A DNA stretch of 21,728 nucleotides, taken from positions 1 to 21,728 of IMG/VR virus record IMGVR_UViG_2529292909_000013, one strand, 5' to 3'. The notes under the pieces were generated by a model. It saw only the letters and a list, made by a program, of their open reading frames with translations. It did no database searches and had not been told where the DNA came from. Position numbers and translations under genes: made by a program. Shown here piece after piece: positions 1 to 20,600 of this stretch; the stretch's first letter is position 1; every line of letters starts with the position of its first letter. The stretch is from a virus. Taxonomy: Duplodnaviria > Heunggongvirae > Uroviricota > Caudoviricetes.

Positions 1-402
1 CTACTGGTTACGTTTCTTTAGTGCCAGCATGTTCTCGAAGGCTTCCTCGTAGAGCTTGTTTAGTCCACGTAGCTGGTTAAGGAGTTTGGCTTTTTCTGAC
101 GCAGGTAGAATCTCGAAGAGGTTAAGTAACTCTGCCTGTTCTTCATTGACCAGCCTCCATCCTTTGCCTGAAAAGTTATCATCATAAGTATCTGATGATC
201 TTACATAATTCATTAAGTCTTTAAGGTCTTCTCGAATGTCCTCTGGTTTTACCTTTAACAGAGCCGCAAATTTTAGCGCAGCGTCGGTATTTACCGGTAT
301 CTTGCCGTTCAGATACTGGCTAACGGTGCCTTGAGATTCGAATCCCAACAACTCAGCCGCCAGCTCTTGAGTCAGCTTCAGCTCTTTTTTCTTGCATTCC
401 AT
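1..402 (-). CDS. Prophage repressor, XRE-family HTH (DicA/CI-like, no S24 peptidase domain)
   Basis: 133-aa minus-strand ORF filling 1..402 with stop at 1..3. N-terminal HTH-like segment (LTQELAAELLGFESQGTVSQYLNGK) and C-terminal part resembling DicA-type repressors. Divergent from a Cro-like gene, as in lambdoid immunity regions. Confidence 0.65.
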   Translation of the reverse strand: MECKKKELKLTQELAAELLGFESQGTVSQYLNGKIPVNTDAALKFAALLKVKPEDIREDLKDLMNYVRSSDTYDDNFSGKGWRLVNEEQAELLNLFEILPASEKAKLLNQLRGLNKLYEEAFENMLALKKRNQ

Positions 403-488
403 GCGGCTTTTAAATTCTTGCTCGCTTCTGGAGTTGCAATCACTTCGCGTGTTTTTTCATACATAGAGTTTATTTGTTTTACCAATAT

Positions 489-535
489 TATCAAAGATAG
501 TCTGGCTATTGATCTTTAAAATTAGCGGGGCTAAT
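489..535. promoter_or_regulatory. Candidate operator palindromes in the divergent repressor/cro intergenic region
   Basis: Perfect inverted repeat ATTAGC-GGG-GCTAAT at 521..535 and TATC-AAA-GATA at 489..499, lying between the divergently transcribed repressor and cro-like genes. Confidence 0.3.
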
Positions 536-561
536 ATTTGCTCGAGGCATAACGTAGAAGG

Positions 562-843
562 TTGGCTATGAACTTAAGAGACTATTTAAAAGAGAAACAT
601 ATCACCCAGCTACAGTTTGGGAAGCTAACGGGTTTATCTCAGGTGCATGTAAGTCGAGTGCTGGGGGGCTATGAAAGATTCAGCCCTGAAAAAGCATTAC
701 GTGTTGCTGAAGTAACGAATTTCGAGGTTACACCTCATGAACTCCGGCCTGATATTTACCCGAATCCAACCGACGGCTTACCTGTTGGATTCAAGGCTAA
801 CACACCAAATGCATCGGAGTTGATTCATGAAAATCAGGCATGA
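562..843 (+). CDS. Cro-like HTH regulator (YdaS-like)
   Basis: 93-aa ORF divergent from the repressor. HTH-like segment (LQFGKLTGLSQVHVSRVL) and the HELRPDIYP motif that I recall from YdaS-family Cro-like proteins of Rac-type prophages. Confidence 0.55.
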   Translation: MAMNLRDYLKEKHITQLQFGKLTGLSQVHVSRVLGGYERFSPEKALRVAEVTNFEVTPHELRPDIYPNPTDGLPVGFKANTPNASELIHENQA

Positions 844-1252
844 GCACATCCGCATGGCGATGAATGCCTGGGCGCATCCGGACGGTGAAAAAGTTCCGGC
901 AGCTGAAATAACCCGGGCTTATTTTGAGCTTGGTATGACGTTCCCGGAATTATATGACGACAGCCATCCGGAAGCCCTGGCTCGCAATACCCAGAAAATT
1001 TTCCGCTGGGTGGAGAAAGACACTCCTGATGCGGTTAAAAAAATTCAGGCGTTGTTACCAGCGATCGAAAAAGCAATGCCGCCTCTGCTGGTGGCCCGAA
1101 TGCGCAGCCACAGTTCAGCTTATTTTCGGGAGCTGGTGGAGACGCGGGAACGACTGGTGAGAGACGCTGATGATTTTGTCGCAGTGGCGATCGCTGGTTT
1201 CAACCAGATGAATCGTGGTGGCCCTGCAGGAAATATTGTGGCTGTGCATTGA
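827..1252 (+). CDS. YdaT-like protein (CII position of immunity region)
   Basis: 141-aa ORF overlapping the end of the cro-like gene by 17 nt; position and size match YdaT-like proteins that follow ydaS in lambdoid prophages. Start codon uncertain (alternative Met at 854). Confidence 0.45.
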   Translation: MKIRHEHIRMAMNAWAHPDGEKVPAAEITRAYFELGMTFPELYDDSHPEALARNTQKIFRWVEKDTPDAVKKIQALLPAIEKAMPPLLVARMRSHSSAYFRELVETRERLVRDADDFVAVAIAGFNQMNRGGPAGNIVAVH

Positions 1253-1317
1253 CTCGCAATATTCATACCGGATCACTTCCGGCAATTTGTGAGTAAAAAG
1301 ATTCGGTATCAGAAGAG

Positions 1318-1797
1318 GTGAGTATGGCTAACGCCTGGCTCAGATTATGGCATGACATGCCAAATGACCCTAAGTGGCGAACAATTGCCAGGGTGTCAGG
1401 GCAGCCAATTGCAACAGTGATGGCAGTGTATATCCACCTTCTGGTGAGCGCGTCACGAAATGTCACGACATGTCACGGCGTGTCACTACGTGGTCACATT
1501 GATGTCACGACGGAAGATTTAGCAAGTGCGCTTGATGTGACGGAAGAAGTAATTGATTCAATTTTACAGGCAATGCAGGGGCGGGTACTTGATGGAGATT
1601 TAATCACCGGATGGGAAAAACGCCAGGTACTGAAAGAGGACAATGGCAACGTTTCACAAACCGCGAAATCCCCGGCAGAGCGCAAGAGAGCGCAGCGCGA
1701 GAGGGAAAAATTACGAAAACAGAATGAGGGGTGTCACGACGAGTCACGCATATGTCACGACGAGTCACGACAGATAAAGATACAGATAAAGAATTAA
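1318..1797 (+). CDS. Replication initiator, phage replisome-organizer N-terminal domain (O-like); reading frame terminates inside a repeat region
   Basis: GAGGTG Shine-Dalgarno before ATG 1318. N-terminus WLRLWHDMPNDPKWRTIARVSG...AVYIHLL fits the phage replisome organizer N-terminal signature. Carries in-gene direct repeats; frame 1 ends at 1797 shortly after the 21-bp tandem repeat. Confidence 0.55.
   Translation: MSMANAWLRLWHDMPNDPKWRTIARVSGQPIATVMAVYIHLLVSASRNVTTCHGVSLRGHIDVTTEDLASALDVTEEVIDSILQAMQGRVLDGDLITGWEKRQVLKEDNGNVSQTAKSPAERKRAQREREKLRKQNEGCHDESRICHDESRQIKIQIKN
1451..1510. repeat. Six phased direct repeats with GTCAC core at about 10-bp spacing (candidate iterons/origin)
   Basis: cGTCACgaaa tGTCACgaca tGTCACggcg tGTCACtacg tgGTCACatt gatGTCACga read directly; helical-period spacing inside the initiator gene, analogous to lambda ori iterons inside O. 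Confidence 0.5.
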
Positions 1798-2354
1798 ACC
1801 CCACACATAACGCGCACGTGCGCGAGAGTGCTCCGACCAGTGAGTCGAGTGGTACGCCGTTGCAGGCAGCAGAACCTGCATCCCTGGATGGACTGAGCGA
1901 ACCCATCGGGAAATTTCCGATGGTCGATGACTGGCATCCGTCGCCGGATTTTCGACGACGGGCTGCGTTGTGGGGGATGGCTTTGCCGGAGCCGGAATTT
2001 ACACCTGCTGAACTTGCCGCTTTCCGGGACTACTGGGCAGCGGAGGGGAAAGTTTTCACGCAGGTTCAGTGGGAGCAGAAATTCGCCCGTCACGTAAATC
2101 ACGTCAGGGCGCAGGTTAAGCCAGTCAGCAAGGGGGTAAACCATGCAGCAGCACCAGGTGGCACCGCATCACGGGCAGTTCAGGAAATTCGGGCAGCACG
2201 TGAGCAGTGGGAACGTGAAAACGGATTTATCAGCGACGGAAACGGTCTGGAAGCTGTGGGAACTCATGGGGGAGGTTTATTCGAACCGCTGGACCCAGAA
2301 GAACGGGGCCGCACCTTCGAAGCTCTGGATTGCACAGATTGGCGCGATGACTGA
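1731..2354 (+). CDS. Distal part of the replication initiator in a shifted frame (frameshifted gene or separate ORF)
   Basis: Frame-3 ORF opens right after a TGA at 1725..1727 with a GTG at 1731, inside the tandem repeat, and runs to TGA 2352..2354, which overlaps ATG 2347 of the next gene (ATGACTGA coupling). No canonical start or RBS seen. Confidence 0.4.
   Translation: MSRRVTHMSRRVTTDKDTDKELNPTHNAHVRESAPTSESSGTPLQAAEPASLDGLSEPIGKFPMVDDWHPSPDFRRRAALWGMALPEPEFTPAELAAFRDYWAAEGKVFTQVQWEQKFARHVNHVRAQVKPVSKGVNHAAAPGGTASRAVQEIRAAREQWERENGFISDGNGLEAVGTHGGGLFEPLDPEERGRTFEALDCTDWRDD
1732..1773. repeat. Two tandem 21-bp direct repeats (TGTCACGACGAGTCACG core)
   Basis: Copy 1 at 1732..1752 and copy 2 at 1753..1773 share a 17-nt identical core; same GTCAC motif as the upstream iteron cluster. 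The frame switch between the two parts of the replication gene maps here. Confidence 0.5.
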
Positions 2355-2808
2355 GCAGCAAATCCGACAGGTCTGCCGCCAGTGCATGGACCGCTGCCGG
2401 GCGGGTGAAACATGGCCTCCGGACCTGGCTGAGTTTGTGGCACTGATTTCGGAAAGCGGAGCCAATCCATTCGGTCTGACGGTGGATGCTGTGATGGAGG
2501 AGTACCGCCGCTGGCGCAATGAGTCCTGGCGATATGACGGAAGTGATAAGTACCCGTGGCCTCAGCCTGTGCTGTATCACATTTGCCTTGAGATGCGTTC
2601 AAAGGGGATTGAGCGCCAGATGACCGAAGGGGAATTAAAACGGCTTGCAGAACGGCAGCTGACGAAATGGGCAAAGCATGTTAGTAACGGCCTGAGCGTT
2701 CCGCCAGTCCGGCGACAACTGGCGGCACCCAAACGCCCGTCGGGGCCAACGCCAATTGAGCTGCTGAAACAGGAATATGAGCGCCGGAAAGCGGCTGGGT
2801 TTGTTTGA
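2347..2808 (+). CDS. Replication protein P-like (helicase loader family)
   Basis: C-terminal region (WPPDLAEFVAL...YPWPQPVLYHICLEMR...ELKRLAERQL) aligns by eye with lambda P as I recall it. The frame is open from 2143, so the true start may be 2143, 2266 or 2347. Confidence 0.5.
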   Translation: MTEQQIRQVCRQCMDRCRAGETWPPDLAEFVALISESGANPFGLTVDAVMEEYRRWRNESWRYDGSDKYPWPQPVLYHICLEMRSKGIERQMTEGELKRLAERQLTKWAKHVSNGLSVPPVRRQLAAPKRPSGPTPIELLKQEYERRKAAGFV

Positions 2809-2840
2809 GTTGAGAAGTAATTTTTACCGGGAGGAAATTT

Positions 2841-3602
2841 ATGGAGACTGTTTTTGACGCACTGAAAGCGATGGGAAAAGCCACGTCGGTAGAGCTGGCT
2901 GCGCGACTTGATATCAGTCGTGAAGAAGTGCTGAACGAACTATGGGAACTGAAAAAGGCTGGTTTCGTTGATAAAAGCGCGTACACCTGGCGTGTGGCTG
3001 ATAACAACGTTCAGCAGGAACAGCCAGCGCAGGCAGAACTGCCGGAAGAAACCACCACAGCAACAGTAGCGAAAATCTCAGAGTGCGATTTAACCGCAAC
3101 GATTGAACAACGCGGATCACAAACGGCGGATGAACTGGCTACGTTTTTCGGCATCACATCACGCAAAGTGGCTTCAAAGCTGGCAATGGCAATCAGTAAA
3201 GGTCGTCTGATTCGCGTTAATCAGGACGGTAAATTTCGTTACTGCATACCGGGCGCTGATTTACCGGCAGAGCCGGAAGCTGCATCCGTAGCGGAAACGG
3301 ATGGTAAAGCCTTTCCTCAGCCAGCAGGTGCTGCGTTACCAGTCCGGGACGCAGCAACACAGGAAGAAATTAAAACAGAAACTGTGGCGGACATTGTGCA
3401 GCCGTTGCCATCGTTTACCGAAACGCAAGCAGATGAGCTGATTTTTCCGTCCCTTCGCAGGGCAAACCTGGCGCTGCGCAGGGCGAAAAGTGATGTTCAG
3501 AAGTGGGAGCGAGTCTGCGCCGCGCTGCGGGAGCTGAACAAGCACCGGGATATTGTTCGACAGATTACTGATTCTTCCCGCCGTGTTGTATCGGAAAAGT
3601 GA
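2841..3602 (+). CDS. Hypothetical prophage protein with two winged-helix-like segments
   Basis: 253-aa ORF with GGGAGG RBS upstream; two HTH-like stretches ([20 protein letters not shown] and [20 protein letters not shown]) separated by an acidic/proline linker. Confidence 0.5.
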
Positions 3603-3617
3603 TTGCCGGAGGCGCTT

Positions 3618-4040
3618 ATGGCAAAAGCATTTACACAAGAAGAGCGGGAAAAAATTAAAGGGCAGGTTGTTGAACTCGTACGCCAGAGTGGGCGCGAGAC
3701 GTTACGACAACTGGAAACTAAAACTGGGGCAACAAGATATCTGATGAGCGTTCTGGCCAGAGAGCTGGTTGCCAGTGGCGATGTATACAACTCTGGTTAC
3801 GGGTTATTCCCGTCTGAACAGGCGCGTAAGGACTGGCAAAATGCCCGTAAAAAGCTCTCAAGGGCAAAGCCGAAGAAACCATCTGCGGTTGATCCGGACC
3901 TTATCTGGTCGTTACCAGACGGCGAAATACGCCGCTACGACAGGCGTCAAAACATAATCTGTCGCGAGTGCTGGAAGAGTGAAGCTATGCAGCGTGTACT
4001 GGCTTTCTATCAGGGGAATTTTCAGAAGGTGCTGTTGTGA
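3618..4040 (+). CDS. Hypothetical protein
   Basis: ATG at 3618 preceded by GGAGG; 140 aa; basic central region; no recognisable family. Confidence 0.45.
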   Translation: MAKAFTQEEREKIKGQVVELVRQSGRETLRQLETKTGATRYLMSVLARELVASGDVYNSGYGLFPSEQARKDWQNARKKLSRAKPKKPSAVDPDLIWSLPDGEIRRYDRRQNIICRECWKSEAMQRVLAFYQGNFQKVLL

Positions 4041-5479: not shown

Positions 5480-5690
5480 AAACGGTTTGCGGGAAAAGGA
5501 GAGTTAAGTAGAATTGCAGCGGGTGCTTGAGGCTATCTGTCTCAGGCATGAACACCAAAAGGCAGATAGAGAAAAGCCCCAGTTAACATTACGCGTCCGG
5601 CAAGACGCTTAACATTAATCTGAGGCCATATCTATGCTCTACACACGTAGGTTAGCCTCTTACGTGCCGAAAGGCAAGGAGAAGCAGGCT

Positions 5691-5846
5691 ATGAAGCAGC
5701 AAAAGGCGATGCTAATCGCCCTGATCGTCATCTGTTTAACCGTCATAGTGACGGCACTGGTAACGAGGAAAGACCTCTGCGAGGTACGAATCCGAACCGG
5801 CCAGACGGAGGTCGCTGTCTTCACAGCTTACGAACCTGAGGAGTAA
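5691..5846 (+). CDS. hokD: Hok/Gef-family type I toxin (HokD/RelF-like)
   Basis: 51-aa product MKQQKAMLIALIVICLTVIVTALVTRKDLCEVRIRTGQTEVAVFTAYEPEE matches Hok-family membrane toxins as I recall them; AAGGAG RBS at 5676..5681; in-frame upstream ATG at 5634 could be the mok-like start. Confidence 0.85.
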   Translation: MKQQKAMLIALIVICLTVIVTALVTRKDLCEVRIRTGQTEVAVFTAYEPEE

Positions 5847-11593: not shown

Positions 11594-11669
11594 GGCCCTT
11601 TAGCTCAGTGGTGAGAGCGAGCGACTCATAATCGCCAGGTCGCTGGTTCAAATCCAGCAAGGGCCACCA
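11594..11669 (+). tRNA. ileZ: tRNA with CAT anticodon (Ile2/Met type)
   Basis: Cloverleaf folded by hand: acceptor GGCCCTT/AAGGGCC, anticodon loop cTCATaa, T-loop TTCAAAT, 3' CCA encoded. Symbol follows Stx-phage naming. Confidence 0.75.
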
Positions 11670-11676
11670 TCACATA

Positions 11677-11753
11677 CCGCCATTAGCTCATCAGGAAAGA
11701 GCGCCAGCCTTCGAAGCTGGTTGCGCGGAGTTCGGGTCCCCGAAGGCGGTCCA
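11677..11753 (+). tRNA. argN: tRNA-Arg (TCG anticodon), slightly non-canonical
   Basis: Anticodon stem CCAGC/GCTGG with loop cTTCGaa; T-loop TTCGGGT; one mismatch each in acceptor and T stems; CCA encoded. Confidence 0.55.
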
Positions 11754-11766
11754 TTATCTGTATCCT

Positions 11767-11843
11767 GCGTTGTTAGCTCAGCCGGACAGAGCAATTGCCT
11801 TCTAAGCAATCGGTCACTGGTTCGAATCCAGTACAACGCGCCA
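11767..11843 (+). tRNA. argO: tRNA-Arg (TCT anticodon)
   Basis: Acceptor GCGTTGT/ACAACGC, anticodon loop cTTCTaa, T-loop TTCGAAT, CCA encoded. Confidence 0.8.
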
Positions 11844-11855
11844 CACTTATTTTCC

Positions 11856-11882
11856 CTGGCTCGCTTTTGCGGGCTTTTTTTT
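11856..11882 (+). terminator. Putative intrinsic terminator after the tRNA cluster
   Basis: gctcgc-tttt-gcgggc hairpin (one G-U pair) followed by TTTTTTTT. Confidence 0.45.
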
Positions 11883-11887
11883 AAATG

Positions 11888-12105
11888 TCTCACAATTCAG
11901 GCGGTTGACTGTTGTCTGGTTTGCGGGGAGTTTGTTAAAAGAAACTGGCATGGTGAATCCCCCTGTGCGGAGGGGCAATCAGCGAGTAGGTATATGGGAT
12001 AATCGCGGATTCAGGTGCTGGTACTGAATTCACCGGGAGGCACCCGGCACCATGCAATGGCACATAGCGCCACTCTCCAGCCCCTCTCCGGAGGGGCTTT
12101 TCTGT
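11888..12105 (+). repeat. Copy A of a tandemly duplicated module of about 220-235 bp (TTGAC hexamer, two hairpins, intrinsic terminator)
   Basis: Shares with copy B, in the same order: CTCACAATTCAG, TTGAC(T/A), hairpin CCCCCTG(T/A)GCGGAGGGG, hairpin CACCGGGAGGCACCCGGCACCATG, terminator CCCCTCTCCGGAGGGG + T-run. Confidence 0.6.
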
Positions 12106-12355
12106 GCCGGATACATCACAGTTTCTGGAACCTTAGGTACTACAGTATCAGTCAGGGTGCTATATTTTCAGATGTGATGAAAGCCTGTCAGCAGGCAGGG
12201 CGTATCGGAAATGACCCAGTAGAGAAAACGTTGACTCAGATACCGGTGCTGAGTTACCGGGAAACCGGCATCACATGACCGCTATCCTTCCAGGCCCATC
12301 CGCTCCGGTGGGCCTTTTTACTGCAGAAAACAGGTTCCCCGTTAAATGCTATGTT

Positions 12356-12590
12356 GCTCACAATTCAGTAAGTTGACAGTTGCCTGTCAGACTGGGCATT
12401 TGTTAAAAAAATTTCGCATGGTGAATCCCCCTGAGCGGAGGGGCGACTGGTGACGGTATAATCTCTGATTATCAAAACGAGAATGACGCGGGTTTAGTGG
12501 CACCGGGCTGAACTCACCGGGAGGCACCCGGCACCATGTGCATGATGATACAGATACGCGGCTTTAGCCCCTCTCCGGAGGGGTTTTCTT
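12356..12590 (+). repeat. Copy B of the same module
   Basis: See copy A. A further intrinsic terminator (ggcccatccgctccggtgggcc + T-run, about 12293..12320) lies between the copies. Confidence 0.6.
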
Positions 12591-12818
12591 GTGGGCAAAA
12601 AAAGCCCGCGCTGGGAGACGCGGGCGGCAAGGAATAAACAATAAAACGTGAAGTAATATTTCAGCTGGCGAATAATATCCGACAGTAATCACTCTGCGCA
12701 ATAGCGCGGCCTTTTTCGTATTGCGGGCTGTTGTCTCTCTTCTGCCATTGTCCTGTAACTTCCGGACTTCAGCCCGCTCCTCATTTTACTCACAATATTA
12801 TCCCGGCCGGGAGGATTC

Positions 12819-14195
12819 ATGGCATTTAAACACTATGATGTTGTCAGGGCGGCGTCGCCGTCAGATCTTGCGGAAAAGCTGACACATAAACTGAAAGAGG
12901 GCTGGCAGCCGTTTGGTAGTCCGGTGGCCATAACCCCTTATACCCTGATGCAGGCGATTGCAGCAGAAGGTGATGTGGTCGTCAGTGGTGCAACTGAGCC
13001 GGAGTGGTACTACGTCATCGTACTGGCCGGGCAGTCCAATGCCATGGCTTACGGTGAAGGGCTTCCGCTTCCGGATTCATACGATGCGCCCCATCCGCGC
13101 ATTAAGCAACTGGCCCGTCGTAACACAGTGACTCCCGGTGGTGAAGTATGCGTATTTAACGACATCATTCCTGCTGACCATTGTCTGCATGATGTTCAGG
13201 ATATGAGTACGATTAACCATCCCCGGGCTGACCTGAGCAAAGGGCAGTACGGCTGTGTCGGACAGGGCTTACATATTGCCAAAAAACTGCTTCCGTATAT
13301 CCCTAATAATGCGGGGATCCTGCTGGTACCATGCTGTCGTGGTGGTTCGGCATTCACCCAGGGCGCGGAGGGGACATTCAGTGCGGACACGGGGGCCAGC
13401 CAGGATTCGGCACGCTGGGGTGTGGGTAAACCGTTATATCAGGATCTGCTTTTCCGCACGAAGGCAGCATTGCAGAAAAACCCGAAAAACGTTTTGCTGG
13501 CGATATGCTGGATGCAGGGGGAATTCGATATGACGAATGCCAGTTACGCCCAGCAGCCAGCAGCATTTCTTGCAATGGTACAGCAGTTCCGTGCTGACCT
13601 TGCCGGGCTGGCGGCGCAGTGCCATGGCGGCAGTGCTGCAGTTGTACCGTGGATTTGTGGCGACACGACGTATTACTGGAAAAACACATACGGCACACAG
13701 TATGACTCCGTCTACGGCGCGTACAAAAACAGGGAGAGCGACAACGTTTTCTTTGTGCCGTTCATGACCGACGGTAACGGCAACAACACGCCCACCAACT
13801 TACCGGCAGAAGACCCGGATATTGCTGATGCAGGTTATTACGGCGCGCAATCCCGTAGTAATGGTAATTGGGTATCGTCAAATCGTCCGACACATTTCAG
13901 TTCATGGGCGCGCAGGGGCATTATTTCGGATCGCCTGGCAACCGCTATTCTGAACGCAGTTGGTCGAACCAGCGCCTTCATCAGCGGTACCGCACCGGAG
14001 ATTAAACCCTCGCCCGGCGGCGACACGCCATCGGGGCCGTCTGATGGTGACACATCCGTTCGTACAGTCTCCCTGCTGCCGACAGCCGGAGAGGCTGCTG
14101 CGCAGGGCTGGACCATCACCGGCGGCAGTGTTGCGCTGGAAGATGGTGTGTTTAAGGTTACCGCGTTAACGGAGCGCGGCGTTGTCCCCTCATAG
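12819..14195 (+). CDS. Prophage NanS-p-like esterase (sialate O-acetylesterase family)
   Basis: 458-aa ORF with GGGAGG RBS; resembles the nanS-p/yjhS-like gene found downstream of the tRNA/stx region in Stx-type lambdoid phages; contains the VIVLAGQSNAMAYGE segment and a Gly/Ser/Asp-rich C-terminal tail. Confidence 0.6.
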   Translation: MAFKHYDVVRAASPSDLAEKLTHKLKEGWQPFGSPVAITPYTLMQAIAAEGDVVVSGATEPEWYYVIVLAGQSNAMAYGEGLPLPDSYDAPHPRIKQLARRNTVTPGGEVCVFNDIIPADHCLHDVQDMSTINHPRADLSKGQYGCVGQGLHIAKKLLPYIPNNAGILLVPCCRGGSAFTQGAEGTFSADTGASQDSARWGVGKPLYQDLLFRTKAALQKNPKNVLLAICWMQGEFDMTNASYAQQPAAFLAMVQQFRADLAGLAAQCHGGSAAVVPWICGDTTYYWKNTYGTQYDSVYGAYKNRESDNVFFVPFMTDGNGNNTPTNLPAEDPDIADAGYYGAQSRSNGNWVSSNRPTHFSSWARRGIISDRLATAILNAVGRTSAFISGTAPEIKPSPGGDTPSGPSDGDTSVRTVSLLPTAGEAAAQGWTITGGSVALEDGVFKVTALTERGVVPS

Positions 14196-15238: not shown

Positions 15239-15787
15239 ATGAAGGTTAATAAAAAGAGGCTTGCCGAAATTTTCAACGTGGACCCGCGGACGATTGAACG
15301 CTGGCAGTCTCAGGGACTCCCTTGCGCCTCCAAAGGTAGTAAGGGCATTGAATCTGTATTTGATACTGCCATGGTAATTCAGTGGTATGCGCAGAGGGAA
15401 ACTGATATCGAAAACGAAAAGCTCCGCAAAGAACTGGACGATTTGCGTGCGGCAGCGGAGTCAGATTTACAACCCGGCACCATTGACTATGAACGCTACC
15501 GGCTCACAAAAGCGCAGGCAGATGCGCAGGAACTGAAAAATGCCCGTGAAGACGGAGTAGTGCTGGAAACTGAACTGTTTACCTTCATTCTGCAACGTGT
15601 GGCACAGGAGATTTCGGGGATACTTGTGCGTGTGCCGTTGACATTACAGCGTAAATATCCGGACATTTCACCATCACACCTTGATGTGGTGAAAACTGAA
15701 ATCGCGAAAGCCTCCAATGTTTCAGCTAAGGCCGGTGAAAACGTGGGCGGGTGGATCGATGATTTCAGACGCGCAGAAGGCAGCTAA
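15239..15787 (+). CDS. Terminase small subunit Nu1
   Basis: 182-aa product closely similar to lambda Nu1 ([62 protein letters not shown]). Confidence 0.9.
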
Positions 15788-16967
15788 TGCAGCCGGTGCG
15801 ATAGCAACAGGGCTTTTATCTCTCATTATTCCTGTTCCACTGACGACAGTTCAGTGGGCCAATAAACATTATTACCTTCCTAAAGAGTCGTCTTATACCC
15901 CGGGGCGGTGGGAAACACTGCCGTTTCAGGTTGGCATCATGAACTGTATGGGCAACGATTTGATTCGCACTGTTAACCTGATTAAATCTGCCCGTGTTGG
16001 TTATACAAAGATGTTGCTGGGAGTGGAGGCTTATTTTATTGAGCATAAATCACGCAACAGCCTTCTTTTTCAGCCCACGGACTCAGCTGCTGAAGATTTT
16101 ATGAAATCTCATGTTGAGCCAACGATAAGGGAGGTTCCTGCGTTGCTGGAGCTGGCTCCATGGTTCGGAAGAAAACACCGCGATAATACGCTCACCCTGA
16201 AGCGTTTTTCCTCCGGTGTGGGTTTCTGGTGTCTGGGGGGAGCGGCAGCAAAAAACTACCGTGAAAAATCCGTGGATGTGGTCTGTTATGACGAGCTTTC
16301 CTCGTTCGAACCGGATGTTGAAAAAGAGGGTTCGCCAACCCTGCTGGGGGATAAACGTATTGAGGGCTCTGTATGGCCCAAATCCATTCGCGGCTCGACG
16401 CCTAAAATCAAAGGCTCCTGCCAGATCGAAAAAGCCGCTAACGAGTCGGCACACTTCATGCGTTTTTATGTGCCCTGTCCGCACTGTGGGGAGGAGCAGT
16501 ATCTGAAATTTGGCGATGAGTCCACGCCTTTTGGGCTTAAATGGGAGAAGGACAGCCCCGAAAGCGTTTTCTACCTCTGTGAGCATCATGGCTGCGTGAT
16601 CCATCAGTCTGAACTGGACCAGAGTAACGGGCGGTGGATCTGTGAAAACACGGGCATGTGGACCCGTGACGGTCTGACGTTTTTCAGCGCTGCGGGTAAT
16701 GAAATTCCGCCGCCGCGCTCCATCACTTTCCATATCTGGACGGCGTACAGTCCGTTCACCACCTGGGTACAGATTGTCTATGACTGGCTGGATGCACTGA
16801 AAGATCCCAACGGCCTGAAAACCTTTGTGAACACCACGCTGGGCGAGACCTGGGAAGAGGCTGTGGGCGAAAAACTCGATCACCAGGTACTGATGGATAA
16901 GGTTGTGCGTTACACGGCGGCGGTGCCTGCCCGGGTGCCCTCGTGGACTCGTCGCCTGACGCACTGA
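15759..16967 (+). pseudogene. Terminase large subunit (gpA) N-terminal fragment, truncated after about 400 codons
   Basis: From ATG 15759 the product tracks lambda gpA (ANKHYYLPKESSY..GRWETLPFQ, CPHCGEEQYLKFGD, TTLGETWEEAVGEK) up to about ...YTAAVPARV, then diverges and stops at 16967; lambda gpA is about 641 aa. Confidence 0.85.
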
Positions 16968-18235
16968 ATACGCTGAACGAGCTGGCTGCGGCGTTGGGCA
17001 ACGACCCGAATTTTGCGACCACCATGACTAACGCGCTTGCGGGTAAGCAACCGAAAGATGCCACCCTGACGGCGCTGGCCGGGCTTGCTACTGCGGCAGA
17101 CAAGTTTCCGTATTTTACGGGGAATGATGTTGCCAGTCTGGCAACCCTGACAAAAGTTGGGCGGGATATTCTTGCGAAATCGACCGTTGCCGCCGTTATC
17201 GAATACCTCGGTTTACAGGAAACGGTAAACAAGGCTGGTAACGCCGTTCAGCGTTCCGGCGATAAAATGACCGGAGAACTGAAAATTGGCACGGTGAATG
17301 CGCTGCGAATTTTCAATGATGCCTTCGGTCTTATTTTCCGTCGTTCAGAAGATTTTCTTCATTTCATTCCGACGGCTGAAGGACAAGGCGAAAACGGTGA
17401 TATCGGCCCATTAAGGCCATTCGCTATAAATCTGAGAACAGGTGCTATATCTGTCAGCCACGGGGCCAAAATTGATGGTGGGCTGGCGCTTGGTACAGAT
17501 AACGCACTGGGCGGTAATTCCATTACTCTCGGAGATAACGACACTGGTATTAAACAGGGCGGCGACGGTGTCCTTTTATTCTATTCAAATGGACAACTGG
17601 CATTTGGGCTTCAACCCGCATCTGCTGATTTTTATAAGCGGGTTGCATATATTCATCAGGGAATAATTCCTGATGGAAGTGGCGCATTTGCAGACCAGTT
17701 GAATAATGCCACCGCGCCTTTTGTTCAGACGCAGTTTGCCTGGAATCCCACTCCTGGTGGTCATTACGTGCCGATAGTTAAGGGCTTGTCCATTCGCAAT
17801 GGACAGGGCTATCCCGGCGCGGTCAGCTTTGGGTATTTACTGACAGAACAGTATGGATTTCCGGTTCCATGTATTCATATGCGTGGCGATGGCGGTAATG
17901 ATGCTTTATGGCAGTTTAACCCGAACCATAAATCCTTTATTTCACCGGGTGCTCTTATTGCGGGTGGCGTCCGTTATAACACCGATGGAAATATATTTGG
18001 TGGGTGCTGGGGGTCAAACTTAAATGATTACCTGAATAGTTCTTTTATCAGAAATGTGCGTCTGGGAGGCAGACGTTCTGACACATTATATCGCGGAGGA
18101 CTTTGCGAACCAGGTAATGGTCATGTGACAACAGGATTGCAAATTATTGGTGAGGTTGATGGAGATGACTGGATGGTGTCACGACCACTACAAAAATACA
18201 TTTCTGGTAACTGGTATAACGTTGAACAGGCATAG
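16943..18235 (+). CDS. stf: Side tail fibre protein, 3' portion (constant-region end plus variable segment Sv); 5' part missing
   Basis: Contains the conserved DALNTLNELAAALGNDPNFATTMTNALAGKQPKDATLTALAGL...AAVIEYLGL block of lambdoid Stf proteins and a C-terminal receptor-binding-like domain. No upstream shaft/N-terminal region; begins at the junction with truncated gpA. Confidence 0.75.
   Translation: MDSSPDALNTLNELAAALGNDPNFATTMTNALAGKQPKDATLTALAGLATAADKFPYFTGNDVASLATLTKVGRDILAKSTVAAVIEYLGLQETVNKAGNAVQRSGDKMTGELKIGTVNALRIFNDAFGLIFRRSEDFLHFIPTAEGQGENGDIGPLRPFAINLRTGAISVSHGAKIDGGLALGTDNALGGNSITLGDNDTGIKQGGDGVLLFYSNGQLAFGLQPASADFYKRVAYIHQGIIPDGSGAFADQLNNATAPFVQTQFAWNPTPGGHYVPIVKGLSIRNGQGYPGAVSFGYLLTEQYGFPVPCIHMRGDGGNDALWQFNPNHKSFISPGALIAGGVRYNTDGNIFGGCWGSNLNDYLNSSFIRNVRLGGRRSDTLYRGGLCEPGNGHVTTGLQIIGEVDGDDWMVSRPLQKYISGNWYNVEQA
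17196..17221 (+). other. Left crossover site (ix/gix-like) for Pin/Gin-family DNA invertase
   Basis: TTATCGAATACCTCGGTTTACAGGAA is 22/26 identical to the reverse complement of the site at 20275..20300 and resembles Mu gix. Lies in the EYLGL codons at the constant/variable junction of stf. Confidence 0.65.
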
Positions 18236-18250
18236 CCATCAGGAGAATAT

Positions 18251-18778
18251 ATGCAACATCTGAAAAATATTACCGCCGGAAACCCCAAAACCATTGAGCA
18301 GTATCAGCTTACGAAAAAAGCTGGCGTTATCTGGCTATATACAGAAGACGGTAAAAACTGGTATGACGAATTAAAAAACTTTCAGGATGATACTTTAAAA
18401 ATAGCTTATGACCAGAAGGGGATTATTCGTTGTATTGAGAAAGACGTATCAATGCTTAACCCTGACGGGTTAAGTGTTGTTGAGTTACCGAATATAACAG
18501 CCAACCGTCGCGCCGATATCTCGGGAAACTGGAAGTTTCTGGATGGTAAAGTAGTAAAGCGGGAATATACAAAACAGGAACTGCAACAGCAGGCAGAGTT
18601 ACAAAAAGCCGCTTTGCTTTCCGAAGCGGAGTCTGTGATTCAACCGCTGGAACGTGCTGTCAGACTGAATATGGCAACTGATGAGGAACGCACACGACTG
18701 GAATCATGGGAACGCTACAGCGTTATGGTCAGCCGTGTGGATACTGCAAAGCCTGAATGGCCACAGAAACCAGAATAA
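18251..18778 (+). CDS. tfa: Tail fibre assembly protein (Tfa)
   Basis: 175 aa; typical Tfa N-terminus ([28 protein letters not shown]) and C-terminus ([12 protein letters not shown]...RVDT...PEWP). Confidence 0.85.
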
Positions 18779-18787
18779 CAACAAATT

Positions 18788-18810
18788 AAGGCCCGTACGG
18801 GCCTTTTCTT
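18788..18810. terminator. Intrinsic terminator between the convergent tfa genes
   Basis: aggcccgtacgggcct hairpin followed by TTTTCTT; could serve both strands. Confidence 0.5.
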
Positions 18811-18911
18811 ATTCTGGTGGTTCCGGGAATGTTACAGGAAGAACCGAGGTATCAGTTGTCTCAACCTGTTGCACGTATCGCATCCAGTTCATCAGTTGCT
18901 GTCTGTCTGAA

Positions 18912-19340
18912 TCAGTGATAATCCCCAAAGTAAGCTGTGTTTGCCAGAACTGCGTTTTTCTCTGGCCTGCTGTAATAATATTTTTTCTGGTTTTCCGTCT
19001 GTAGGCGCAACTCTTCTTCGGTATATACACGTTTAATGACTGCGCCATCTTTAAACATCCATTTACCTGAGTCGTCAGCACGCCGGTTGGCGGTAATATC
19101 AGGAATCTCAACGACGCTATAACCTTCAGGGTTAAGTGTGGAGGCATCTTTGGTTATGGCAACAATAATATTATTTTCATCGTAAACAATCTTTATGGTG
19201 TCTGGCTGAAATTTTTTCACTTCCTCATACCAGTTTTTTCCGTCCTCAGAGTAAAGCCAGATAACTCCGTGTTTCTTTGTTAACTCATACTGTTCCAGTG
19301 TTTTAGCATTACCCGCTTTTATGTTCTTTAAGTGCATCAT
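18912..19340 (-). CDS. tfa: Alternative tail fibre assembly protein (Tfa') in inverted orientation
   Basis: 142 aa on the minus strand; N-terminus parallel to Tfa ([28 protein letters not shown]); start lies 2 nt downstream of the stf' stop on the minus strand. Confidence 0.8.
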
Positions 19341-19341
19341 A

Positions 19342-20292
19342 TTAAACGCTCGCTACATTATACCAGGTGCCATTTATATACTTTTGAACGGGTCTGTAAT
19401 AAACGCCCGCTATATTATCGGCAGAGTTAGACCCTGTATCCTGAACATTAATACCAGACAATACATGACCTGAAGGGCACTGGAAATTCCATGTTTGCCA
19501 GTTGTTCACTCCATAATATTGCTGTGAACCAAGTCGAACATCTTTCACATAACGGGAATCAAAGTTACCGTAATCCGAGGGGTTAACACGCCCTGTAATA
19601 TTTATGGTTTTATTACTTTGAATGCTTCCGGAGACAAAGCGCATAACATGGACGTTATTAGCATAAACATCCAGATTACCATCGCCATTTTGTTTAAAGC
19701 CCGTGTCATTATCACCCAATACAATCGAATTACCGCCAAGAGCACTGGATGTTCCGATACCCAGTGCACCATTCAGTTGACCACCAGATAACGGCAGTGC
19801 ACCAACATCTCCTGCTGAAGGTTTTCTGGTGGTGGTGTAAAATTCGGACCAGTCGGCTTCAAAACCATAACCATCACGGGCTGAACGATAAAAAATACCG
19901 CCATTTTTATAATTAATCCGAAACTGAACTGCAGGACAACTTCCTTCTCCCATATAAAAATGAATAATTAACGTTGATGCACCACTAATAGTTGCGTTAT
20001 AGGCTCCGCTACTCCAGTTCCATCCAACTGCTTTATCATTCGCAACGGTGCTTCCTGTTTTCCCTAAGGCAAACGCACCAACATGACTTGCTTTTAATGT
20101 GATATCGGAGGAACCATCAAAAGCCACATTGCTTATTTTCCTGGCAGTTTTTAATTTTGCAGCTGTAGAAGCATTGCCGGATAGTTCACCAGAAAGGCCA
20201 CCGCTGAATGTTTGTCGATTAGTCCAGGTATTCGCTGTACTGAGTAACGGTATTTTCTCCCCGCTTGTGCCGAGTTCTCGTAAACCGAGGTT
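19342..20292 (-). CDS. stf: Alternative tail fibre variable segment (Sv'), promoterless/startless, inside the invertible segment
   Basis: Minus-strand frame is open from 20292 (translated by hand: [32 protein letters not shown]...), beginning exactly in the LGL codons at the right crossover site; would be fused to the constant stf region after inversion. Confidence 0.7.
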
Positions 20293-20300
20293 TTAGATAA
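20275..20300 (+). other. Right crossover site (ix/gix-like)
   Basis: TTCTCGTAAACCGAGGTTTTAGATAA closely resembles the Mu gix site and lies just upstream of the pin reading frame. Confidence 0.65.
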
Positions 20301-20354
20301 TGGCGGTTTCTGGCCTGCATGGCATGATTTGTGCTTTTGGACGGGAGATTCAGC

Positions 20355-20537
20355 GTGCTGATTGGCTATGTAAGGGTATCAACAAATGACCAGAATACAG
20401 ATCTGCAACGAAACGCTCTTGTTTGTGCAGGATATGAACAAATATTTGAAGATAAATTAAGCGGAACAAGGACAGGCCGACCTGGATTAAAACGTGCTTT
20501 AAAGCGCCTTCAAAAAGGTGACGCACTGGTTGTCTGA
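20355..20537 (+). pseudogene. pin: Pin/Gin-family serine DNA invertase, N-terminal 60 codons followed by decayed frame
   Basis: GTG start; (M)LIGYVRVSTNDQNTDLQRNAL...LKRALKRLQKGD matches the Pin N-terminus including the catalytic-Ser region; stops at 20535..20537 where Pin has Trp. Downstream reading still resembles Pin (K-L-D...L...HL) but with further stops, then ends at a tfa fragment. Confidence 0.8.
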
Positions 20538-20600
20538 AAACTGGACTGACTGGTTCACTGTATGCGGCATCTTGTCGTGCTGGTGGTGGAAGCCTAGAAA

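Follow-up and report, generated by a model that had tools for sequence, protein, structure and literature searches.

The initiator gene O of phage lambda contains its own replication origin, ori-lambda, between the parts that encode DNA binding and interaction with the helicase loader. The lambda sites are about 19 bp long and dyad-symmetric, and a palindrome lies beyond the AT-rich tract. Replisome-organizer genes with internal origins are also known, such as that for G38P of SPP1, with oriL, and those of lactococcal phages (Phage_rep_org_N); the direct repeats inside such genes are bound by the gene's own product. The Rac prophage, with the gene order ydaS-ydaT-ydaU-ydaV, has an active origin, oriJ (PMC3945230). 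In lambda, the iterons are followed by an AT-rich tract (PMC7466680); the origins of the Shiga toxin (Stx) phages 933W and P27 have six iterons against four in lambda, and the length of the protein varies in step (PMC7466680). In this study, we analyzed a viral stretch of 21,728 nt (the window; positions 1 to 21,728 of the IMG/VR record IMGVR_UViG_2529292909_000013, Caudoviricetes), in which a replication initiator gene carries two arrays of GTCAC repeats. Very probably, this locus is a cassette of origin and initiator in a Rac-like lambdoid Escherichia prophage, and the loss of one iteron has inactivated it.

Judged from its sequence, the layout resembles both lambda's in-gene origin and the in-gene origins of replisome-organizer genes, while the protein belongs to neither the lambda O nor the DnaT family. 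As in lambda, the putative origin lies inside the initiator gene between the predicted DNA-binding and loader-interacting parts, the iterons run into an AT-rich tract, the next gene encodes a P-family loader (PF06992), and specificity modules appear to be exchanged at the origin. Unlike the lambda sites, the repeats here are direct, 10-11 bp long and built on an asymmetric 6-bp core; in place of a single array there are two, separated by about 280 bp, and the P-like protein has 153 aa and matches the P profile in part. Membership of the lambda O family was rejected, as no O-family Pfam match was found at E values up to 0.01 and the sole domain found was that of DnaT (PF17948). The number of in-gene iterons varies as in the Stx phages, here by in-frame 21-bp variants; added iterons keep the frame in the Stx phages (+13 amino acids), whereas a change of a single 10-bp unit destroys it here. 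The internal direct repeats recall those of the replisome organizers, and here too the gene's own product may bind them; in contrast, the hosts are Proteobacteria and the matches to PF09681 are sub-threshold. The Firmicute organizers are not known to be fused to a DnaT-like domain or to be paired with a P-like loader. The C-terminal three-helix domain, which binds single-stranded DNA (ssDNA) in Escherichia coli DnaT, is clearly homologous, and the N-terminal domain of DnaT is replaced by a putative sequence-specific origin-binding domain. The gene order and the YdaS/YdaT-type early region are those of Rac; however, K-12 YdaU and the initiator of Rac-SA53 carry an N-domain of the DUF1376 type, with a TGTTCAAACA/TGTTTGAACA inverted repeat in place of GTCACG arrays, and K-12 has the DnaC-like YdaV rather than a P-like loader. 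Literature searches found no description of this replicon type. The features of the replication region are the following, in window positions:

1313-1318 and 1324-1326, plus strand: Shine-Dalgarno sequence AAGAGG and initiator start codon ATG (from the sequence, gene calls, and the starts that the Prokaryotic Genome Annotation Pipeline, PGAP, gives in homologues)
1324..2354, plus strand: initiator gene, here a pseudogene (1031 bp against 1041 bp intact), with a predicted replisome-organizer-type N-domain and a DnaT-like C-domain
1324..1797, plus strand: frame-1 remnant open reading frame (ORF) of 157 aa, 146 native residues and 11 out of frame (ESRQIKIQIKN), ending in TAA at 1795-1797 (P0001 compared with P0016)
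1452..1509, plus strand: iteron array A, six GTCAC(G) units starting at 1452, 1462, 1472, 1482, 1493 and 1504
1731..2354, plus strand: frame-3 remnant with the native C-terminal 200 aa, begun by gene callers at ATG 1752 (ORF list and gene calls)
1733..1771, plus strand: iteron array B, four GTCACG units (five in intact alleles) starting at 1733, 1743, 1754 and 1764
1754..1763, plus strand: deletion junction, where alignment with the intact allele shows one 10-bp unit GTCACGACAT (or the equivalent register in the 8-bp repeat GTCACGAC) to be gone
1770..1809, plus strand: A-rich/AT-rich tract, ACAGATAAAGAT twice and then AATTAAACCCCACACATAA, candidate unwinding element and joint for the exchange of N and C modules
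1811..1824, no strand assigned: perfect 14-bp GC palindrome CGCGCACGTGCGCG on the 3' side of the AT-rich tract, seen in the sequence and listed as a stem in the promoter and terminator scan
1914..2114, plus strand: ssDNA-binding domain of the DnaT C-terminal type, PF17948 (65.4 bits against a Pfam cut-off of 25)
2347..2808, plus strand: lambda-P-like helicase-loader gene, 153 aa (PF06992; phrog_109; 'replication protein P' in PGAP)

The original prediction, made from the window alone, listed a frame-1 ORF at 1318..1797 and a frame-3 ORF at 1731..2354, and both are present in the ORF list; it left open whether the initiator was frameshifted in a decaying prophage or divided into two separately translated products. 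Comparison with intact homologues, which it suggested as a check, supports the frameshift. A megablast search of 5426 complete E. coli genomes returned 660 records that cover the region, and the best matches are 10 bp longer than the query. In NZ_CP102488, for example, the gene is a single coding sequence of 1041 bp and 346 aa, annotated as a 'DnaT-like ssDNA-binding domain-containing protein', and it overlaps 'replication protein P' by 8 nt. The continuous ORF found elsewhere differs from the window by an indel of 10 bp in array B, and the alignment to the intact allele places the entire difference there: the intact array consists of B1 GTCACGACGA, B2 GTCACGCATAT, B3 GTCACGACAT, B4 GTCACGACGA and B5 GTCACGACAG, and the third unit is missing in the window. 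The loss shifts the downstream codons to the -1 frame, and translation would stop at 1795-1797 after 11 aberrant residues. Over the remainder of 1324-2354, the window matches the most frequent intact allele (L001) exactly; since the initiator gene has no further change, the deletion appears recent. The decay that had been suspected also agrees with the truncated terminase gene of the prophage.

A second case was found in NZ_CP069459, which lacks the fourth unit instead (AT at the junction, GA in the window) and which PGAP annotates as 'frameshifted'. Different units were lost in the two sequences; thus, at least two independent one-unit losses occurred. Both would be explained by slipped-strand deletion between the perfect 8-bp repeats GTCACGAC. 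Because 10- and 11-bp spacings alternate, the loss of one unit breaks the frame, whereas two units make 21 bp, or seven codons, and keep it; in-frame variants that differ by two units (21 bp) were seen in arrays A and B alike (P0021, P0022 and alleles of 336 aa). Array B has three, four or five units in different strains, and three-unit arrays occur in intact genes.

The initiator starts at ATG 1324, 5 bases past AAGAGG, as called by PGAP and by metagenome gene callers, and the same ATG is called on six metagenome/SRA contigs; the start proposed earlier at 1318 is a GTG that overlaps the Shine-Dalgarno sequence and has to be given up. The proposed coupling to the next gene holds, as the ATG of the P-like loader overlaps the initiator stop within ATGACTGA (2347-2354), an overlap of 8 nt. 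Frame 1 is indeed open again from 2143, in an ORF at 2143..2808, which is merely the upstream run of the P-like gene starting at ATG 2347. Separately translated products find no support: no homologue keeps the two-ORF layout, and the frame-3 starts have no usable Shine-Dalgarno sequence, since GTG 1731 sits 1 nt past GAGG and ATG 1752 has none. In a promoter and terminator scan of positions 1-3700, sites were no more frequent than in shuffled sequence, and an Rfam scan of the replication region matched no RNA family.

The repeats of both arrays share a 6-bp core, GTCACG, and are spaced by about one helical turn. In array A, which encodes a sequence-tolerant loop of the N-domain, the spacing is 10, 10, 10, 11 and 11 bp, with all units on the plus strand; six phased GTCAC repeats of about 10 bp had been noted at 1451..1510, and they were found again at 1452-1509 on one strand. 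In array B, which encodes the interdomain linker, the spacing is 10, 11 and 10 bp. The two 21-bp tandem repeats reported there do contain repeated sequence, in that the 17-mer TGTCACGACGAGTCACG is present twice, at 1732 and, 21 bp further on, at 1753; they are really four 10/11-bp units of the array A motif, and the perfect 21-bp periodicity results from the one-unit deletion. Such clustering greatly exceeds what chance would give: six copies of GTCAC are packed into 60 nt, and the highest count reached when the window was simulated 300 times with a first-order Markov model was three. Of the 14 GTCACG sites in the window, counted on both strands, nine lie in 1452-2094. The AT-rich tract is the G+C minimum of the initiator gene (0.325 in 1760-1799). 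A tandem pair of AGAGCGCA, 10 bp apart, was also seen at 1677-1694, in the region that codes for the basic linker just upstream of array B; this pair may be due to chance.

Scans with the N-domain yielded 28 loci in species-representative genomes and 80 loci in IMG/VR. Arrays A and B keep their places in the gene in Serratia, Rahnella, Aquitalea, Pseudomonas, Bordetella, Acidovorax, Gilvimarinus, Chromobacterium and others, whose N-domains are 62-74% identical. In the distant loci, GTCAC stands at gene positions 129/139/149/160, followed by three or four units near 390-420. Across 19 loci, the unit spacing is 10 bp in 83 cases and 11 bp in 27, with six gaps of other sizes in array A. Inside the cores, seven of eight third codon positions are invariant, against five of 73 outside (16 genes; Fisher p = 1.7e-6), and the 10-bp units are read in all three frames. 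These fixed synonymous sites and the use of three frames rule out a repeat at the protein level, and the repeats behave, on sequence criteria, as DNA-level cis elements. In relatives without GTCAC, the core motif changes in both arrays together: GTAACG is found in Pantoea and Enterobacter, GTAACGC in Marinobacter and Sphingomonas, and CGAACGC in a Pseudomonas and in a Terracidiphilus metagenome-assembled genome (MAG). A AGATAAAGATAAA-like tract of 24-47% G+C follows array B in every GTCAC-type locus (loci of 34-69% G+C); it is retained even in loci of 60-69% G+C, and in two loci it is read in another frame. The array positions, core conservation and AT-rich tract together argue strongly that the arrays are probably a replication origin, for which they had earlier been named as a candidate.

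Some loci depart from this pattern. In L028 (Erwinia phyllosphaerae), GTCACG is partly spaced at 5 bp (GTCACGTCACGTCACG) in both arrays, at gene positions 160-181 and 412-451. In L033, L039 and L041 (Ventosimonas MAGs and a Pantoea sp.), neither array position showed an obvious repeated core; L039 has nine tandem AGATAA units in place of the core motif.

The intact initiator of 346 aa is predicted to consist of an N-terminal helix-turn-helix (HTH) domain of the replisome-organizer type, a basic linker, an ssDNA-binding domain of the DnaT C-terminal type and an acidic tail. The C-terminal part matches DnaT chains in the PDB (4ou6 and 9zbt) with E values of about 4e-20. The protein is not a DnaT orthologue, as it scores 97.4 bits with NF002770 against an equivalog cut-off of 201, and only residues 192-278 match, to profile positions 80-166. 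The N-terminal 135 aa stayed below threshold for every Pfam and NCBIfam family, and a PDB profile search gave no solved relative. Weak matches in this domain were to an HTH at residues 57-86 and to Phage_rep_org_N; PF09681 matched weakly in eight of 21 family members (best E 0.008, under the Pfam threshold), and the window's initiator gave no PF09681 match at E values up to 0.01. Matches to PHROG replisome-organizer and DnaD-like families (E 4.5e-5 to 5e-7) place the protein among replication initiation proteins, and PGAP calls close relatives 'phage replisome organizer'. Array A encodes aa 43-62, directly before the HTH motif; this variable loop is the one indel-rich, hypervariable stretch in the N-domain alignment, and residues 44-60 form a low-confidence coil in a poor single-sequence AlphaFold model (mean predicted local distance difference test score 61). 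The P-like loader matches PF06992 with 58.1 bits (cut-off 26) over positions 50-161 of 162, and phrog_109, 'P-like helicase loader'.

Taken together, these features suggest how an intact locus of this type may work. The N-domains would bind head-to-tail along one helical face, at the phased sites of the arrays, the adjoining A-rich tract would melt, and the DnaT-like domains together with the P-like loader would bring DnaB. Filaments of the DnaT C-terminal domain form on ssDNA, and a role for DnaT in recruiting DnaB/DnaC has been proposed (PMC13377028). In the window's copy, the frame shifts past residue 146, so that the putative DNA-binding domain would be detached from the DnaT-like domain, and the P-like gene would lose its coupling to the initiator; with the binding domain severed from the rest of the initiator, initiation should fail. 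The four-unit origin DNA itself may still be usable if an intact initiator of the same type acts in trans.

The protein most likely to recognize the arrays was sought by comparison of loci, with two upstream early-right genes and the DUF1627 gene also considered:

562-843, plus strand: YdaS-like HTH gene in the position of Cro
827-1252, plus strand: YdaT-like gene in the position of cII, leading into the replication genes

The distant GTCAC-type loci mostly lack homologues of YdaS, YdaT, P and the DUF1627 protein as well as the DnaT-like part; the N-domain alone is shared. Rac-SA53 (L006) presents the opposite case. Its YdaS-like, P-like and DUF1627 genes and the C-terminal part of its initiator are 89-99% identical to those of the window, but its initiator has a DUF1376-type N-domain and no GTCAC; in its positions 1441-1560, the inverted repeat of TGTTCAAACA and TGTTTGAACA occupies the place of array B and is followed by nearly the window's AT-rich tract, a CCCCACACATA motif and a near-identical GC palindrome. 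This double dissociation makes the N-domain the likely binder of the arrays. The YdaS, YdaT and DUF1627 proteins were rejected as binders, since they are missing from most distant GTCAC loci and present in the array-less Rac-SA53. An idea that the GATAAA tract is tied to the DnaT-like domain, in the manner of a DnaA-trio, was downgraded, because the tract follows the N-domain even without a DnaT-like C-terminal part. K-12 Rac ydaU was likewise set aside as a homologue, as its N-domain belongs to another family, DUF1376.

Rac-SA53 shares the tract and palindrome but not the N-domain; therefore, different recognition modules seem to have been joined to a shared unwinding and C-terminal module. 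The joint can be located: homology to phages Evi, 689R5 and Tritos stops at window position 1792, and homology to Rac-SA53 starts at 1772. This switch at 1772-1792 makes the putative origin a joint for module swapping. The second alternative of the original prediction, a domain boundary at the iteron region with separate products, thus survives in part. The boundary between the N-domain and the DnaT-like part is real, and it coincides with a mosaic recombination joint; the separate products do not stand.

The four-unit allele is rare, with a frequency of about 1% or less. The exact fragment of 157 aa is found on six contigs from six samples, made with different assemblers, and on at least three flanking haplotypes, while one exact intact protein of 346 aa is present on at least 1000 contigs. 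None of the 80 close IMG/VR relatives has a frameshift at array B, and 79 of them are full length. When an 86-bp array-B query was searched against complete E. coli, the only match of equal length, among the matches listed, was the AT-junction deletion of the neighbouring unit; in the best 40 of 193 near-full-length matches, the remaining 39 rows are all 10 bp longer than the query. The distant loci are single ORFs of 246-434 aa, except one that is cut by a contig end and one that was unread because of a wrong start offset. Among the PHROG profiles matched by window positions 1324-2808, phrog_21423 (157 positions) consists of N-terminal fragments similar to that of the window, which shows that phage records contain truncated alleles too; phrog_15931 (482 positions) spans initiator and P-like protein, implying fused O-P ORFs in some of these records.

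Several other explanations of the two-frame arrangement were weighed. Two points would suit a sequencing or assembly artefact, in which a five-unit array was collapsed or miscalled: the change sits within a short tandem repeat, and among the matches listed, none of the 5426 complete E. coli genomes has this exact allele. The recovery of the identical allele and its 157-aa product from six samples by different assemblers, and a different one-unit deletion in a finished genome, make such an error extremely improbable. Assembler k-mers should normally be longer than 17 nt, and the longest internal repeat of the intact array B has 17 nt (TGTCACGACGAGTCACG); graph collapse is therefore not expected. 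It is equally hard to credit that the arrangement is functional, with two fragments made separately or with full length restored by a -1 slip at A_AAG (1776-1779 or 1788-1791). Translation that slipped at either site would continue in the native frame, with few residues altered in a variable linker, and the allele does occur in several samples; however, only isolated A_AAG tetramers are present and no X_XXY_YYZ heptamer, the GC hairpin lies at least 19 nt downstream of them, no Shine-Dalgarno sequence precedes GTG 1731 or ATG 1752, the two-frame layout is found in none of 27 distant homologues while 79 of 80 close ones are single ORFs, and the frequency of the allele is about 1% or less.

The GTCACG arrays could instead be operator-type sites for transcription or exclusion rather than an origin, with the N-terminal fragment kept as a trans-dominant blocker of related phages. 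The fragment does retain the whole putative DNA-binding domain, array A has no adjoining AT-rich tract, and replication of the lambda type can be inhibited by plasmid-borne iterons of the lambda ori (PMC3349717). We consider this unlikely, because array B has the standard layout of an origin (phased iterons, a GC-independent AT-rich tract and a palindrome) in an initiator gene beside a loader gene, and for the truncated allele, which is rare, no sign of selection was seen. A built-in mutational switch, in which in-frame iterons at alternating 10/11-bp spacing allow one-unit slippage to turn replication off, is improbable to a similar degree; if it existed, rare four-unit alleles would represent a recurrent, possibly reversible 'grounding' of prophages whose intact origin a phage of matching specificity in the same cell could replicate in trans. 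That iteron slippage reversibly toggles replication competence, as in an on/off contingency locus, is very unlikely. Two independent one-unit deletions with different junctions, one allele on at least three flanking haplotypes, in-frame 21-bp variants in both arrays (P0021, P0022 and the 336-aa alleles), and the arithmetic by which a gain of a 10-bp unit or loss of an 11-bp unit would restore the frame all fit such a locus; yet an array of merely four or five 10-bp units is far below known phase-variable tracts, off alleles are rare, no length heterogeneity was observed at the population level, and the prophage in the window cannot make particles anyway.

Some points tell against the interpretation preferred here, an in-gene origin and initiator inactivated by the loss of one iteron. 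Array A lies inside the coding region of the N-domain, so its linkage to that domain is partly trivial, and it may be part of the origin, an auxiliary site or an autoregulatory site. The DNA-binding role proposed for the N-domain draws on weak HTH matches and co-inheritance, with no family above threshold and no solved relative; binding and origin function in this replicon type are read from sequence patterns. Moreover, at least three flanking haplotypes share the same deletion allele, perhaps through recurrence or recombination, which could leave room for a selective or switching role.

The state of the rest of the prophage is in keeping with the inactivated initiator. In the ORF for the terminase large subunit (15717..16967), only residues 17-393 of a 642-aa homologue align (15807-16937); the ORF abuts genes of the tail-fibre type (window 15717-18235), and portal, capsid and tail genes are absent. 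Without these genes, the prophage cannot make particles. The NZ_CP102488 prophage, which has an intact initiator, has a full lambda-like head and tail module. Since the prophage in the window also lacks most morphogenesis genes, the loss of the initiator would be part of ordinary prophage decay.

Other parts of the window contain further recognizable elements. The tail-fibre region at 17189-20545 is 96.9% identical to Yersinia phage vB_YpM_3, where the annotation of the corresponding region includes a hin DNA invertase; an opposed ORF for a tail-fibre C-terminus (19342-20127, minus strand) suggests an invertible host-range segment, and no invertase ORF was identified in the window. In the nin region, a match to the Rfam sok antitoxin RNA (5521-5696, 117 bits) indicates a toxin-antitoxin locus of the hok/sok type. 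Positions 11594-12596 contain the tRNAs Met-CAT, Arg-TCG and Arg-TCT, then two copies of the small RNA STnc100; a gene with DUF1737 and SASA esterase domains follows at 12819-14195, a layout like that of the late region of Stx phages, and no stx gene was found among the ORFs examined.

In sum, for the prophage in the window, the replication initiator appears to be dead through a recent deletion of one repeat, which fits the missing head and tail genes. The deletion event is ordinary, and the conserved in-gene origin cassette is a comparative by-product of modest interest. The origin-recognition domain, two in-gene arrays and a GATAAA-type tract would form a compact, portable cassette, found in Gamma- and Betaproteobacteria and beyond with varied C-terminal parts that may recruit the helicase. 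This offers a sequence rule (GTCACG, GTAACG or CGAACGC) by which origins and initiator specificity might be predicted in many prophages. It would also explain why joints of phage mosaicism fall at array B and the AT-rich tract, and why initiator genes of this class are prone to frameshift by repeat slippage.

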